Part shown: one piece after another, positions 21,889 to 57,217 of the stretch | Layout: each line of letters begins with the position of its first letter | Numbering within the stretch: position 1 is the first letter of the stretch | Program-made: the position numbers and the translations under genes | The notes under the pieces: model-generated | The model's database searches: none | What the model was told of the DNA's origin: nothing | The model's input: the letters and a program-made list of their open reading frames with translations, nothing else | Origin: a virus | Strand: one strand, 5' to 3' | Length of the DNA: 64,000 bases | IMG/VR virus record: IMGVR_UViG_3300021406_000010 | Location: 64,001 to 128,000 of that record

Positions 21889-23661
21889 CTAGTCGTCCCC
21901 GCCGGGGTCGACGTTCCAGGCCGGCTCGTTGCGACGGGGCTCCTCGTGCCGCCTGATGTCGTCCTCGTGGGAGGCGTAGAACTTGTCGGCCACCTCCTGC
22001 GCCACGGCGGACAGCCCGCCGATGGTGGCCGCGAACTCCTTCAGCTCCTCCGCCGGCGGATCGTTGACGGGTGCCTCCTCGACACGGGCCACGATGCCCG
22101 TGAAGTCCTCCGCGAGCCCCTCGAACAGGGCCGGGAGGCCGGCGAAGAATCCCATGATCGACGCGGCGTTGTCGAACTGGATCCCGCTGAGGACCTCGGA
22201 GACGTGGTCCTTCAGCTCCGTGAGCGCCGGTGATGGTGATGGTGCCATGTCGTGCTCCTCTGATGGTGACGGGGGCGGCGGGCGGTCACCGCCCGGTCCG
22301 TGCCCGGGGTCAGGCCGGGCCCTCCTGGACTCGTAGGTGACCTCCGGCCCGGGGTCATCCACTGGCGATGTTAGCAAGGAAAGCCTCATCCCGCGAACAA
22401 GCCGGAACAGCCGGCGCAGGCGGTGCTTCCACCTGCGGTACAGGCGCCCGACCAGCCGGACCAGCCGGAAGTCCCCGTTCCCGCCGGCCCGCCAGGTCAT
22501 CAGCTCCGGGTCCGGGCGCGGCGGCGAGGGCCGGAACCGGAGCCTCGGGCACGGGATGGCGCCCCGCCGGCGCCACGACCACCGCAGCCCGCGAGCGCCT
22601 CCCCGGGCGGCACCGCGAGCCGCCGTCCAGGGCAGCCTGCGCCACCGCACCCTCGCCGCCCCCCTCCTGGCCCAGTAGAGCGGGGACAGCGGGGGGACCC
22701 ACCCCAGGCCGCGCGGGCGCGGCGGGCGGCCGGGCATGCCACCCCGGCCGCCAGGCGGGCGGAACGCCGCCCCGGAGCGGGAGGCGCCCCGGGACCGGGC
22801 GCCGCCAGCCCGGGGCACGCCGCCTGGGCGGCGCCCGGTCCCGCCGGGATGGCGGCTCCCCCCGCCGGGGATGCCCCGGGACCGCCCGGCCGCCATCCCC
22901 GGGAGGCGGAATGACGACGGGCGGGACCCTCCGGGCATCCTGCCCCGCGCCGGGGCGCCCCAGCCGGGCACCCCGGAGAGGCGCGCCCCGCGAGCGGAAC
23001 CGCGCGAGGGACTCGCCCCGGCGCGGGGACGCGCGCCCCCCGGCCAGGGCAGGTGCATGCCCCACGGGCGCAGGCTTCCCGCGCGAAACGGGTGCGCACT
23101 CCCCGTGCGGAATGAGTGGCCGCCTCCTGCACGGGAGAGCGCCGCGCCCCCTGTGCGGAAGAAACGTGCACCCCCCGCACGGGAAGAGGCCGCACCCCCT
23201 GTGCGCACCCCCCTGTGCGCACCCCCGTGCGCGGCGCTACCCCCCGGGGGTAGCGCGCCCCCCGGGCCGCGCCGGCGCGAGCTGCCCGCACCCCCGGAGA
23301 ACCGCGCCGGCGCGCTCTGGGCGGCCATGCGCAGCCAGGGCACGCGCCGCGCGATGCGGGGCGCGCCGCTCATCAGCGCACGCGCCAGCGAAGCGCCCCC
23401 CTGGCGCACCCCCCGGGGGCCGCGCCGGCGCGGCATGCCGCCGCCTCGCCAGTTCCGGGGGTGCAGCCGGCGCAGTACCGCGCCGGCGCGGCGCAGCCTG
23501 CGCCGCACGTGCCGCAGGACGCGGGGCGACACCGCGACGCCGCCGCCCGCTGCCAGGCCAGCCCCCCAGCCGGCCAGCCGCGCGGTGCCTGCCGCCGCCA
23601 GGATGGCCAGGAAGACCACGATGGCGGCCCTCCTGGCCCGGACGGCGTCCCACTTACCCAC
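21889..23661 (-). CDS. Membrane-anchored Arg/Gly-rich protein with a plasmid TraA-like helical C-terminal domain
   Basis: N-terminal TM helices, low-complexity middle, C-terminal HEDDIRRHEEPRRNEPAWNV; internal starts at 22362 and 22248. Confidence 0.55.
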   Translation of the reverse strand: MGKWDAVRARRAAIVVFLAILAAAGTARLAGWGAGLAAGGGVAVSPRVLRHVRRRLRRAGAVLRRLHPRNWRGGGMPRRRGPRGVRQGGASLARALMSGAPRIARRVPWLRMAAQSAPARFSGGAGSSRRRGPGGALPPGGSAAHGGAHRGVRTGGAASSRAGGARFFRTGGAALSRAGGGHSFRTGSAHPFRAGSLRPWGMHLPWPGGARPRAGASPSRGSARGARLSGVPGWGAPARGRMPGGSRPSSFRLPGMAAGRSRGIPGGGSRHPGGTGRRPGGVPRAGGARSRGASRSGAAFRPPGGRGGMPGRPPRPRGLGWVPPLSPLYWARRGAARVRWRRLPWTAARGAARGGARGLRWSWRRRGAIPCPRLRFRPSPPRPDPELMTWRAGGNGDFRLVRLVGRLYRRWKHRLRRLFRLVRGMRLSLLTSPVDDPGPEVTYESRRARPDPGHGPGGDRPPPPSPSEEHDMAPSPSPALTELKDHVSEVLSGIQFDNAASIMGFFAGLPALFEGLAEDFTGIVARVEEAPVNDPPAEELKEFAATIGGLSAVAQEVADKFYASHEDDIRRHEEPRRNEPAWNVDPGGDD

Positions 23662-54605: not shown

Positions 54606-55213
54606 CTAGGGCCCGCCGAGCGTTCCTGTTGCCTGGCCGTTGAATTTTGTGAACTTCCAGCCGATTCCGTCGGATATGCGGGCCATGAAGGCGCTCACCG
54701 CGTCGTAGGCCTGCTGGGAGAAGGCCCCGTTGGTGGTGCCCGCCTTCACCAGCGACGGGCTGCCGTCCTGCACGATGAACAGGGTCAGGACGTACTGGTG
54801 GGAGAACTTGCCGTAGCGCATGATCACGCTGGCGTCCCCGTCGGGGTCGGCGAGGCCCTTGACGTAGACCAGGAAGTTCCAGTTGCGGGGCGGATAGGAG
54901 AAGACCGCCGGCGGGTGCATCTGGGCGTTCGCGGTGGCGTCGGCCGACTGGGCCTCCATGATGGCGGTGATGCCGCCGAGGAAGGCCTCGGCCTGCTGCC
55001 AGCTCTCCCCCGTCACGGCGTCGGAGTGGTCCTGGCCGAAGGACCCGCGCACCGTCAGGTCCGACAGCCGCGAGCCGGTCACCTGGATGACGCGCCCGCC
55101 GATGGTCTCCGTGACGGAGGTAAGAGGACCTCGTAGCTCCAATCGATCGCGTCAGGATCGATTCGGAAGGCTATCGAGGGGCCGCCCGGATATCCGAGCG
55201 TGGCAGTTCCCAT
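54606..55213 (-). CDS. Tail tube initiator-like protein, needs a +2 shift at CTC-TTA (55126-55121)
   Basis: Strong SD + ATG 55213 gives MGTATLGYPGGPSIAFRIDPDAIDWSYEVL, continuing in another frame as TSVTETIGGRVIQV. Confidence 0.7.
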
Positions 55214-55318
55214 AAGGCACCACCTCCCTTCAGTGCCCTGGCCCTGGCGAGCGATCCCCTGGCAAGGGCAAGTTGCTTCAGCGTCTCGGGCGTTTCGTCG
55301 TCCCTCCTTCCGGGCCGG

Positions 55319-57217
55319 CTACCGGCTCGCCTGGTGCACGTAGGGGTTGGCGGGCACCTGCGAGGTGGCAGCCGCCTGGTCGTTGTTCGCGGGCAGCACC
55401 TTCAGGAGCTGCCGCGCCTCGGGGGTCAGCGCGATGGTGAGCGCCTGGGAGAAGGGGCCGGCCGCCTGCGGCTGGGCCGGCCCCAGGGGGACCGGGGCCG
55501 GCTTCGGGACGGGGACCCTGGCCGGCGGCGTGACAGGCGGCGTGACGGGCTTCGGCGAGGTTCCGACGGGGATGCCGCCGAGTACGTTGCCCTGGGACCC
55601 CGGCGACGGGGACTGCCCGACGGGGATGCCGCCGAGCACGGTCGGCACGACGGCGGGAGGCGCGCCCCCCGTGCCGCCCGTCGTCGTGCCGCTGGTGCCG
55701 AGGGTGGCCTCGTTCACCCCTACCGTCTGCGAGACGATCCACTGGAACGCCTGGGCGGAAGTCATCTGGACGCCGGTGAGGGCGGAGATCTCCTGCGCCC
55801 ACAGGTTCTCGTTGATGTTGCCGCTAACCTGGTTGGCGTTCAGGAACGCGGTGGCGACGCTGTCGCGGAGGCCGGGGTTCCTCGCCACGGCGGCGGCGCC
55901 GCCTGCCTGCGCGATCAGCTGCTGCAGGGACTGCGTCATCTGGGGGGTCATCAGCCCGCCCAGGGTCAGGAACTGCATGTTCTGGCCGGCCAGCTGCTGG
56001 GCGTACAGTTGCGGGTTGTTGCGCGCCGTGTACTGCAGCTGGGCGGGGGACTGGCCGGTCATGCCCGCCAGCAGGTACTGGCGCTGCTGCGACAGCTCCC
56101 CGGAGAAGTTCACCCCGGCGAACTCCTTGCCCAGCAAGCCCTGCATGTTGGCGATCCCGCCAGCCAGGGCGGTGGCGCCGTTGCCGGCCCCCATGCCGAG
56201 CGCCTGGGAGAAGTACGCGTTGAACTGCTGGCGGGCCGTCTCGGCCGAGGTGCCCGCGTTGCCGGCGTCCTGCGACAGCTGCTCCATGGTGCGCGACAGC
56301 TGCTGCAGGTTGACGTTGGCGTCCTGGGTGGCGGACTGCAGGACGGACAGCGAGTCGTTCACGTCCATGCCCATGGAGTTGTAGTTGTGGTAGACGAAGT
56401 TGAGGGCGCTCTGCCGGTTCTGCGGCTGCTGGCCCTCCCCGATGGCCCCCTGGTTGAACCCCATCGCGGTCACCCCGGCGAACGACTGCGCCGCCGCGCC
56501 CTGCGGCATCAGGCCCGTCATGCTCAGCTGGTAGACCGCCTGGTGCAGCCGCTCGGTCTGGGCGTTCCAGTTGCCGCCGCCCTCGACCTCCTGGTACGGC
56601 CGGGCCGCCTCGCGCTGGGTGAGGTAGGGGTTGCCGTTGGCGAACCAGTTGTACAGGTCGGTGACCAGGCCCACGCCGGGGATCTGCTGCAGCAGGCCGG
56701 CCGGGGTGCCGCCCGAGGCTGCCACCCGTGCCCCGACCTGCTGGCCGAAGGTGAGGGCCGCCGCGCCGCCACCGGGGGCTCCGCCTCCTCCTCCGCCGCC
56801 GCCGCCGCCGCCTCCACCGCCTCCTCCTCCTCCGGGCGGCCCGTAGAGGGTCCCGCCCCCGGCCTGGCTGTAGAGCCACGAGCCCAGCTGCTGGGCGCCG
56901 TAGGCCTGCAGGTTCTGCAGGGAGGAGGCGGCCCCCATGGGCGACAGCTGGGTGGCGCCCGCCGTGGCCACGGCCGACCCGCCGCGCTGCAGCTGGGCGA
57001 TCACGTCCGGGTCCATGTTCGTCGTGGGCGGCACCTGGCTCGCCTGGTAACGGCGCGATGCGCTGCTGGTCCGGGTCAGCGCGCTGGTCTGCGCGCTGAT
57101 GACCTGCTCCAGGGACTGCAGCTGGCGGACCACCACCTGCAGCCCCTGGGTCATCTGGGCGGCGGCCGATGCCGCGCCCACCGTCGACTGCGGCTGGCCT
57201 GGCCAGGGGATGGTCAC
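55319..57217 (-). CDS. Tape measure protein (short, 632 aa)
   Basis: Ala/Gln/Gly-rich helical protein right after the tail assembly chaperones. Confidence 0.7.
   Translation of the reverse strand: MTIPWPGQPQSTVGAASAAAQMTQGLQVVVRQLQSLEQVISAQTSALTRTSSASRRYQASQVPPTTNMDPDVIAQLQRGGSAVATAGATQLSPMGAASSLQNLQAYGAQQLGSWLYSQAGGGTLYGPPGGGGGGGGGGGGGGGGGGAPGGGAAALTFGQQVGARVAASGGTPAGLLQQIPGVGLVTDLYNWFANGNPYLTQREAARPYQEVEGGGNWNAQTERLHQAVYQLSMTGLMPQGAAAQSFAGVTAMGFNQGAIGEGQQPQNRQSALNFVYHNYNSMGMDVNDSLSVLQSATQDANVNLQQLSRTMEQLSQDAGNAGTSAETARQQFNAYFSQALGMGAGNGATALAGGIANMQGLLGKEFAGVNFSGELSQQRQYLLAGMTGQSPAQLQYTARNNPQLYAQQLAGQNMQFLTLGGLMTPQMTQSLQQLIAQAGGAAAVARNPGLRDSVATAFLNANQVSGNINENLWAQEISALTGVQMTSAQAFQWIVSQTVGVNEATLGTSGTTTGGTGGAPPAVVPTVLGGIPVGQSPSPGSQGNVLGGIPVGTSPKPVTPPVTPPARVPVPKPAPVPLGPAQPQAAGPFSQALTIALTPEARQLLKVLPANNDQAAATSQVPANPYVHQASR

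Follow-up and report, generated by a model that had tools for sequence, protein, structure and literature searches.

A probable UUA-triggered ribosomal hop at a homing-endonuclease cassette scar in a phage baseplate gene

Few examples of natural programmed ribosomal bypassing are known, namely gene 60 of phage T4 and its homologues, the 'byp' elements of yeast mitochondria and the terminase gene of phage phiHau3; the byps are not known to have a UUA trigger or an endonuclease cassette. Here, we describe a tail gene in a 64,000-nucleotide (nt) stretch of DNA from an uncultured soil phage, referred to below as the window, which comprises bases 64001–128000 of the 166,488-bp IMG/VR virus record IMGVR_UViG_3300021406_000010 (71% GC, rated complete by CheckV). 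In this gene, a UUA codon likely triggers a ribosomal hop from CUC to the overlapping CUU, at a site that would be the scar of a homing-endonuclease cassette.

The UUA bypass in the phiHau3 terminase gene was proposed by Smith et al (2013), as cited in PMC10732093, and has reporter and mass-spectrometry support from a heterologous system (Antonov et al, 2023, PMC10732093). The phiHau3 gene has two 10-nt gaps, and the corresponding gaps in the StrepC.1 and S. catenulae prophages are 7 nt long (PMC10732093). In T4 gene 60, the bypassed 50-nt insert belongs to the MobA homing element (Bonocora et al, 2011, as cited by Manning & Atkins, 10.1101/2022.08.31.505936) and blocks self-cleavage by MobA; loss of the endonuclease with retention of the bypass has also been documented (10.1101/2022.08.31.505936). 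Hungry or slow codons in E. coli give rise to short hops and overlapping +2 shifts (Weiss et al, 1987; Gallant and Lindsley; both as cited in PMC10732093), and the byps of Magnusiomyces capitatus mitochondria are GC-rich, structured elements of 27–55 nt in an AT-rich genome (as summarized in PMC10732093). The words HNH and homing are absent from PMC10732093, and a full-text literature search for bypassing, homing endonuclease and TTA returned no paper describing the combination.

The tail gene and all of its features described here lie on the minus strand of the window. A strong Shine-Dalgarno (SD) sequence (AAGGGAGGTGGTG, 55218–55230) precedes an ATG at 55213, from which a segment of 30 codons (MGTATLGYPGGPSIAFRIDPDAIDWSYEVL, 55124–55213) runs to GAG GTC CTC. 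The last of these, the putative take-off codon CTC (55126–55124), is directly followed by a rare TTA codon (55121–55123), which would occupy the A site with CTC in the P site. If TTA is decoded, the zero frame (…LPPSRRPSAGASSR, 55079–55120) ends at a TGA (55081–55079) 13 codons after the TTA, and the open reading frame (ORF) from ATG 55213 amounts to 44 amino acids (aa). The +2/−1 frame from 55121 reads ACC TCC GTC ACG GAG ACC ATC GGC and stays open over 171 codons to a TAG at 54608–54606 (54606–55121 in total); joined to the N-terminal segment, it gives a 201-aa protein. The 2-nt coding gap consists of the first two TTA bases (55123–55122), and the landing codon is CTT (55124–55122). An earlier, sequence-only reading of the window had described the strong SD, the ATG at 55213, the 30 codons ending GTC CTC TTA, the zero-frame stop 13 codons later and the long frame ending at 54606, and its description and coordinates are exact. 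TTA is rare throughout the phage, with 8 of 36,159 codons (0.22 per 1000) in a crude gene set of the genome.

In the proposed mechanism, UUA in the A site would be hard to decode, and the ribosome would stall there while its P site holds peptidyl-tRNA-Leu paired with CUC. This tRNA would then let go of CUC and re-pair two bases further on at the overlapping CUU, and decoding would resume at ACC to yield the normal 201-aa protein; decoding of the UUA would instead yield a 44-aa dead-end peptide. The predicted junction peptide of the hop is …SYEVLTSVTETIGGR (also given as …IDWSYEVLTSVTETIGGR). We infer the hop itself from the comparisons below, which bear on its occurrence rather than on its efficiency.

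Both pieces of the gene matched the same PHROG family, phrog_2786, with residues 1–29 of the short ORF aligning to positions 20–48 and residues 9–173 of the long ORF to positions 51–179; the two pieces therefore belong to one protein family. Pfam and NCBIfam searches gave nothing for the tail-protein ORFs or for the endonuclease ORFs discussed below. A protein search returned 203 relatives, mostly 200–205 aa long, that read MGTATLGYPGGP..AFR.DP..I.W.W.VLTNV.ETIGGRVIQV without interruption, with the consensus …W.W.VLT(N/S)V.ETIGG at the junction. In 74 unbroken loci from IMG/VR and JGI metagenomes, the N-terminal motif is separated from the ETIGGRV motif by 93 nt, compared with 95 nt in the window, and based on the spacing and reading of these loci the window gene has two extra bases. 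The +2 hop product, …WSYEVL/TSVTETIGG…, is collinear with the approximately 74 uninterrupted homologues and contains no insertion or deletion. Candidate products, with codon 30 joined to ACC, were also scored against a hidden Markov model (HMM) of 25 full-length homologues. The +2 hop product had the best score, 352.5 bits, followed by the product of a −1 shift with one extra Leu (347.3 bits) and the product starting at TTG 55142 (289.6 bits). The alternative start at TTG 55142, raised in the sequence-only reading, fails, as the N-terminal 30 aa are present in homologues and this segment is under purifying selection in gapped alleles (see below).

An AlphaFold (AF2) model of a homologue with 70% identity had a mean predicted local distance difference test score of 62, with approximately 80 over the first 20 residues, and placed residues 1–36 in three beta strands. 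Foldseek matched this model to the phi812 baseplate (9euf_M, E 1e-6), to an extracellular contractile injection system (6j0n_b), to diffocin (8v3w) and to SPP1 Dit. By these model-based matches, the tail protein would be a tube-fold baseplate protein similar to Dit or a tube initiator. A sheath gene (phrog_2839) and a tail assembly chaperone gene (phrog_2792) fit a contractile-tailed phage.

The gap in the window is one of a series. Gapped alleles were collected from the DNA of homologues whose ORF calls began at the junction or carried small inserts there; P0034, P0044, P0049, P0068, P0078, P0082, P0089 and P0100, whose ORF calls start at or after the junction, lie outside the series, as does P0073. 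Gap bases are counted from the TTA through the landing codon, and alleles are written as take-off, gap and resume codon. Gaps of 2 nt were found in the window (CTC-TT-ACC) and in L114 (ATA-TT-ACC, AUA to AUU), a gap of 5 nt in L115 (AAT-TTAAT-ACG) and a gap of 7 nt in L112 (CTT-TTACCTC-ACC). Three alleles have 8-nt gaps, L107 (CAA-TTACCCAG-ACC), L113 (CAG-TTAGCCAG-ACG) and L116 (CTT-TTAGCCTC-ACC). L009, L062 and L063 share an 11-nt gap (CTA-TTACAAAGCTC-ACC), and the gaps of L109–L111 (CAG-TTACCGCAG-ACG, 9 nt) and L108 (CTT-TTAAAAGGACCGCTC-ACC, 15 nt) are in frame. Unbiased scans found the gap in a few percent of loci.

In the window and in the nine other alleles, TTA stands directly 3' of the take-off codon, and these first three bases are the only invariant of the gap. 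Take-off and landing codons agree in their first two bases in every allele of the series, and the pairs CTN/CTN, CAR/CAG, AAT/AAT and ATA/ATT thus covary across Leu, Gln, Asn and Ile. Both 2-nt cases allow an overlapping landing, in that TT, preceded by the last base of the take-off codon, forms CUU after CUC and AUU after AUA. When the gap is skipped, every allele of the series returns the consensus V-(L/Q/N/I)-T-N-V. The pattern also holds for the in-frame gaps of 9 and 15 nt, where the frame needs no correction; if read through, these gaps would add 3–5 residues to a predicted beta strand. The re-pairing from CUC to CUU put forward in the sequence-only reading is thus borne out, as far as comparison of sequences can do so, by collinearity, by the best HMM score and by nine further alleles with the same pattern. 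The comparative evidence is strong that normal proteins are made from the gapped genes. Separately, L113 carries ATC in place of the ATG start (L113:995–1010), in a frame with no ATG, GTG or TTG, and may be a decaying copy or use a non-standard start.

The phiHau3 record contains the gaps GGC-TTACTCCGGT-AAG and TCT-TTAACGGTCC-ACG, which follow the same pattern as the tail-gene alleles. In both systems, found in a high-GC actinophage setting, a rare UUA directly follows the take-off codon, a synonymous landing codon lies just before the resume codon, and removal of the gap restores a conserved protein. The window differs from phiHau3 in its 2-nt gap with overlapping landing, as compared to the non-overlapping 7–10 nt there, and in that a tail/baseplate gene rather than a terminase gene is affected. 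The tail-gene site, which is known from sequence alone, also has an allelic series of 2–15 nt, and it is associated with a homing-endonuclease cassette and a recoded duplicate of the 5' end, unlike the phiHau3 terminase gene. The locus shares with the E. coli hops the re-pairing of a P-site peptidyl-tRNA on a cognate codon close by while the codon in the A site is starved; whereas those hops are low-level events on engineered or overexpressed messages, the tail-gene hop would be natural, fixed, recurrent and required for an essential protein. As with the byps, many short mobile inserts would be bypassed between matched take-off and landing codons.

The 5' part of the gapped genes differs in composition from the remainder. 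In the window gene, the GC content at third codon positions (GC3) is 0.72 over the first 25 codons and 0.95 over the remainder, whereas the 74 unbroken alleles have values of 0.90 and 0.92, which agrees with the earlier observation that the codons before the TTA are A/T-richer than the genome norm. Across the gapped alleles, GC3 of the first 25 codons ranges from 0.40 to 0.80, and that of the remainder from 0.86 to 0.98 in all but L115, which belongs to an AT-richer phage (0.48 and 0.71, respectively). The proportions of synonymous (pS) and nonsynonymous (pN) differences in the N-terminal segment of the ten gapped alleles are 0.66 and 0.20, and the pN/pS of 0.30 indicates that this segment is under purifying selection in gapped alleles. 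The gapped alleles also have in common an SD of the form GG(A/G)GGTG(G/A)TG, followed by 4–5 nt and ATG; unbroken alleles have varying SDs and start with ATG, GTG or TTG.

Intact HNH endonuclease ORFs adjoin the gapped gene in L108 (L108:806–1501), L116 (L116:641–1252), L109/L111, L135 and L136. Those of L108, L116 and L109/L111 carry the motifs ..CEHCG..YDWAFN..Y(I/L)RLCR(A/S)CH..FDETPE..GGGA*, and the HNH ORFs match the PHROG HNH-endonuclease families phrog_5351 (2e-14), phrog_1271 and phrog_8446, as well as annotated HNH genes of Gordonia, Mycobacterium and Rhodococcus phages. In L108, L116 and L136, the HNH ORF lies directly upstream and is fused to the native 5' end. In L108 and L116, the ORF opens with ~24 GC-rich codons that are the native beginning of the tail gene (VGTATLGYPGGP..AFRLDPELIT), so the endonuclease uses the start of its own target, and the 3' end of the ORF encodes the new SD of the tail gene. 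In intact cassettes, the HNH stop overlaps the tail-gene ATG (GCG TAA TGG or TGATG).

In the window, a remnant of such an ORF, consisting of its last 27 codons (ETPETLKQLALARGSLARARALKGGGA, 55216–55296), lies upstream of the tail gene, and the 3' end of this remnant forms the tail-gene SD, which is thus cassette-borne. Over its whole length, the remnant aligns with the C-terminal 27 residues of the L108 ORF (13/27 identical, E 3e-4), and no intact HNH copy of the L111 type was found in the genome of the window. At 55213–55215, the sequence reads GCC TTA TGG, in which a second TTA replaces the stop of the endonuclease remnant. L009 has a chimeric 59-aa ORF (L009:2998–3177) composed of the native GC-rich first ~22 codons and the C-terminal ~35 HNH residues (..CRSCHKKFD..GGGA*), and represents an internal deletion of the endonuclease with both copies of the 5' end kept.

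Based on these alleles, the cassette would consist of four parts: an endonuclease ORF in frame with the native first ~24 codons, a strong SD within the 3' end of this ORF, a synonymously recoded, AT-richer duplicate of codons 1–30, and a short, TTA-led gap that ends in a landing codon matched to the codon before the TTA. The history of the window gene would then be that an HNH cassette invaded the 5' end and that the endonuclease was later deleted, leaving the last 27 HNH codons, the SD, the 30 recoded codons and the 2-nt gap.

This arrangement resembles the MobA/gene 60 element of T4, where endonuclease and bypass insert also form one mobile unit and the flanks diverge from the unbroken allele. 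In both cases, the endonuclease can be lost with the bypass kept, take-off and landing codons are matched, a poorly decoded codon occupies the A site, and the insert is thought, here by analogy, to protect against self-cleavage while leaving the conserved protein unaltered. The gene 60 bypass, in contrast, spans 50 nt and uses a stop (or hungry) codon together with a take-off stem-loop, an internal SD and a signal in the nascent peptide; no such feature is evident at the tail gene. The tail-gene cassette also differs in that it duplicates and recodes the 5' end of its target and supplies a new SD and start. The tail-gene endonucleases match different PHROG HNH families. As judged from its sequence, the tail-gene locus combines the phiHau3 pattern with the cassette logic of T4, to which it adds a second, recoded copy of the 5' exon and gaps that go down to 2 nt.

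The distribution of the gap indicates mobility. In a tree built from the C-terminal, non-cassette part of the tail gene (68 distinct rows), the 11 gapped rows need 10 state changes, at least 7 of which are forced by well-supported branches, and presence and absence of the gap are scattered among near-identical phages. L112, with its 7-nt gap, and the unbroken L005 share ~99% identity on both sides of the cassette, beyond the landing codon and ahead of the SD, and are told apart only by a 26-nt remnant of the endonuclease, the recoded 30 codons and the gap itself. The landing codon is CTC in L112, while L005 has CAA, which assigns the landing codon to the cassette. L005 itself (IMGVR_UViG_3300047585_000133, L005:2970–3100) has an SD of the cassette type (GGGGAGGTGATG), a partly AT-richer 5' end and a rare CAA at the junction (GTG CAA ACC), and resembles a formerly gapped allele from which the gap has since disappeared ('hit and run').

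The alternative that survives best, although we consider it unlikely, is a −1 ribosomal frameshift at the UUA stall, in which C 55124 would be read twice and CUU decoded as a second Leu to give …EVLLTSV…. The −1 and +2 frames are identical, hungry-codon stalls provoke several kinds of slip (Weiss, 1987; Gallant; both as cited in PMC10732093), the −1 product still reaches 347 bits in the HMM, and insertions of 3–5 aa would exist at this very site if the in-frame alleles were read through. However, a canonical −1 heptamer (X XXY YYZ) was rejected, as none is present in G GTC CTC TTA, and the region has no significant structure (z −0.47). A −1 slip would leave the tRNA on CCU, with poorer pairing than on CUU, and the extra residue at the junction occurs in no uninterrupted homologue. 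Gaps of 5, 7, 8 and 11 nt with the same pattern could not be solved by a 1-nt slip without junk residues, while L114 independently provides the overlapping +2 landing (AUA to AUU).

Less probable still is a broken gene, that is, a decaying endonuclease scar with no full-length protein, or a defective phage. The endonuclease in the window has itself decayed, L113 seemingly has no standard start codon, and viability is not deducible from metagenome contigs. Against this, the gene is a single-copy structural gene in a record rated complete, at least five samples carry this allele with variation by single-nucleotide polymorphisms (SNPs), the 171 downstream codons are intact with a GC3 of 0.95, and purifying selection acts on the upstream 30 codons across the gapped alleles. 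Random decay would also not break at least 10 alleles at one site, each time with a TTA and a landing codon that matches.

We consider it improbable that the gene is split, with an N-terminal peptide of 30–44 aa and a separately made C-terminal part that assemble afterwards. Gene splitting linked to MobA/MobE with assembly of the fragments has been documented (10.1101/2022.08.31.505936), and the modelled N-terminal strands could in principle complement in trans. However, an SD is absent before TTG 55142 and before a later GTG, and several alleles have no start codon in the C-terminal frame near the junction or have a stop just upstream. In-frame alleles make no sense as split genes, and the matched landing codons would be left unexplained.

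A sequencing or assembly error as the source of the two extra bases is very improbable, even for a record that is a metagenome assembly, as the identical junction was present in five other metagenome assemblies (L089 and L117–L120, from samples 3300021170, 3300021402, 3300021404 and 3300020580 and contig Ga0222750_1004573; 0–1 SNP per kb over the ~1 kb compared), CTCTTACC is not a homopolymer, and the recoded 5' segment and the endonuclease remnant are not error-like. L089 was first taken as a diverged relative (90% identity in the tree) but has the same sequence as the window joined to unrelated DNA after ~570 nt, and is hence a second assembly rather than a second lineage. Transcriptional slippage was rejected for lack of a homopolymer, an expanded-anticodon tRNA because the gaps differ in length and no such tRNA is encoded by the phage, and an intron or intein because gaps of 2–15 nt are too short.

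A TTA-led gap is also present in the tube gene of the window (59813–59801, minus strand), where GGC TGG-TTAATGC-GAG contains a 7-nt gap whose landing codon TGC is only near-cognate to TGG. An SD (AGGAGGTGGT) and an AT-rich 5' segment lie upstream of this gap, so that the design shared by the tail and tube genes, at which the sequence-only reading had hinted, is present at both sites; it would be explained by both being scars of homing-endonuclease cassettes. An intact HNH endonuclease gene of 287 aa (59961–60824, plus strand; phrog_1872, 5e-18; phrog_20467; phrog_59) lies directly upstream of the tube gene on the opposite strand. Tube-gene gaps of relatives are 4, 8 and 15 nt long, and 8 relatives are unbroken. 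The gapped tube alleles are L122 (TGG-TTAATTGT-GAG), L125 (TGG-TTACCTGG-GAG), L128 (TGT-TTAC-GAG) and L126 (IMGVR_UViG_3300043778_000098, L126:1330–1530; TCT-TTAGGAGCCTAGTCT-GGT). In L126, the 15-nt gap lies at a different site, after codon 11, with identical take-off and landing codons, and contains an in-frame TAG, the only in-frame stop among the tube alleles; this gap therefore cannot be read through.

A second cassette lineage was found in the baseplate gene itself. L135 and L136 (positions 1110–1170 in each) have an endonuclease with HNH and helix-turn-helix domains, which in L136 is fused to the native 18 codons, and gaps after codon 17 that read CGA-TTAAGGT-ATC and CGA-TTAAAGGC-ATT. 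At least three unrelated HNH lineages may carry the TTA-gap device, two in the baseplate gene and a third implied beside the tube gene.

Several observations weigh against a UUA-triggered hop at a cassette scar as the explanation. RNA folding around the gap in ten alleles revealed no conserved structure and no shared internal SD; z-scores ranged from +0.3 to −2.9, and hairpins were allele-specific, e.g., GGTCCTT-TTA-AAGGACC in L108. The landing codon GGY of L135 and L136 matches the take-off codon CGA in only 2/3 positions, which is the main exception, and together with the poor landing match of L128 it means that the take-off/landing rule is not absolute. A 2-nt overlapping hop and a −1 slip are indistinguishable by sequence alone, with an HMM margin of only 5 bits, and the role in self-immunity is drawn by analogy only. 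Finally, TTA rarity was counted in phage genes, and a limiting UUA-tRNA is a putative property of the host.

A Streptomyces-like host is plausible. The relatives found in genome collections carry unbroken alleles only and are L137 (Streptomyces sp. A0642, a 152-kb contig) and L138 (Streptomyces sp. cg35, plasmid pRLB1-9.1, 151 kb); these extrachromosomal-looking records of ~150 kb, relatives of a phage group of ~160 kb, hint at a phage-plasmid lifestyle and a Streptomyces host. UUA decoding in Streptomyces depends on bldA. Aragorn found no tRNA-Leu in the phage genome, and a crude screen of every TTA trinucleotide against local GC3 gave too much noise for a genome-wide list of recoding sites. 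The sole tRNA that aragorn found in the 166-kb genome is an unusually long tRNA-Arg(gcg) of 89 nt at 22745–22833 of the window (genome 86745–86833, complement).

Upstream of the tail gene lies the presumed tape measure gene (55319–57217, minus strand, 632 aa, stop TAG at 55321–55319), which follows the tail assembly chaperone gene. Approximately 100 nt separate its stop from the tail-gene start, with the SD at the end of this interval. The presumed tape measure has no Pfam or PHROG match of its own; its orthologue upstream of L114 has weak LysM and transglycosylase matches. The window protein contains an unbroken run of ~18 glycines followed by AP(G)3.

The tail gene is an essential, single-copy baseplate gene, and a low-efficiency hop could supply a baseplate protein that is present at few copies per virion. 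The tube protein, in turn, is made in high copy, so any hop in the tube gene would have to be efficient. By analogy with T4, the gap probably spoils the target of the endonuclease without adding residues to a conserved beta strand; a small hint in the same direction is that the most conserved DNA of unbroken alleles (codons 37–44) lies just 3' of the gap. Through the gap, tail synthesis may also depend on how much UUA-reading tRNA the host provides, which would be bldA in Streptomyces. More tentatively, and with somewhat more doubt than confidence, TTA-led micro-gaps might be a general device of homing-endonuclease cassettes in large soil actinophages, in which the gap would abolish the target of the endonuclease with the host protein unchanged, tail output would as a side effect be tied to poor UUA decoding, and the 2–15-nt series would form a natural titration of hop distance that extends from overlapping +2 re-pairing up to a genuine bypass of 15 nt.

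For annotation, structural genes that look frameshifted in metagenomes of high-GC phages can in fact be intact. Ten natural alleles with gaps of 2–15 nt at one codon offer material for measuring the effects on efficiency of hop distance, of the landing match and of starvation at the A site. The comparison also ties the Streptomyces UUA case to the logic of T4, with the bypass insert as part of a homing-endonuclease cassette, and this would give such inserts an evolutionary reason, namely immunity of the target site without damage to the protein.

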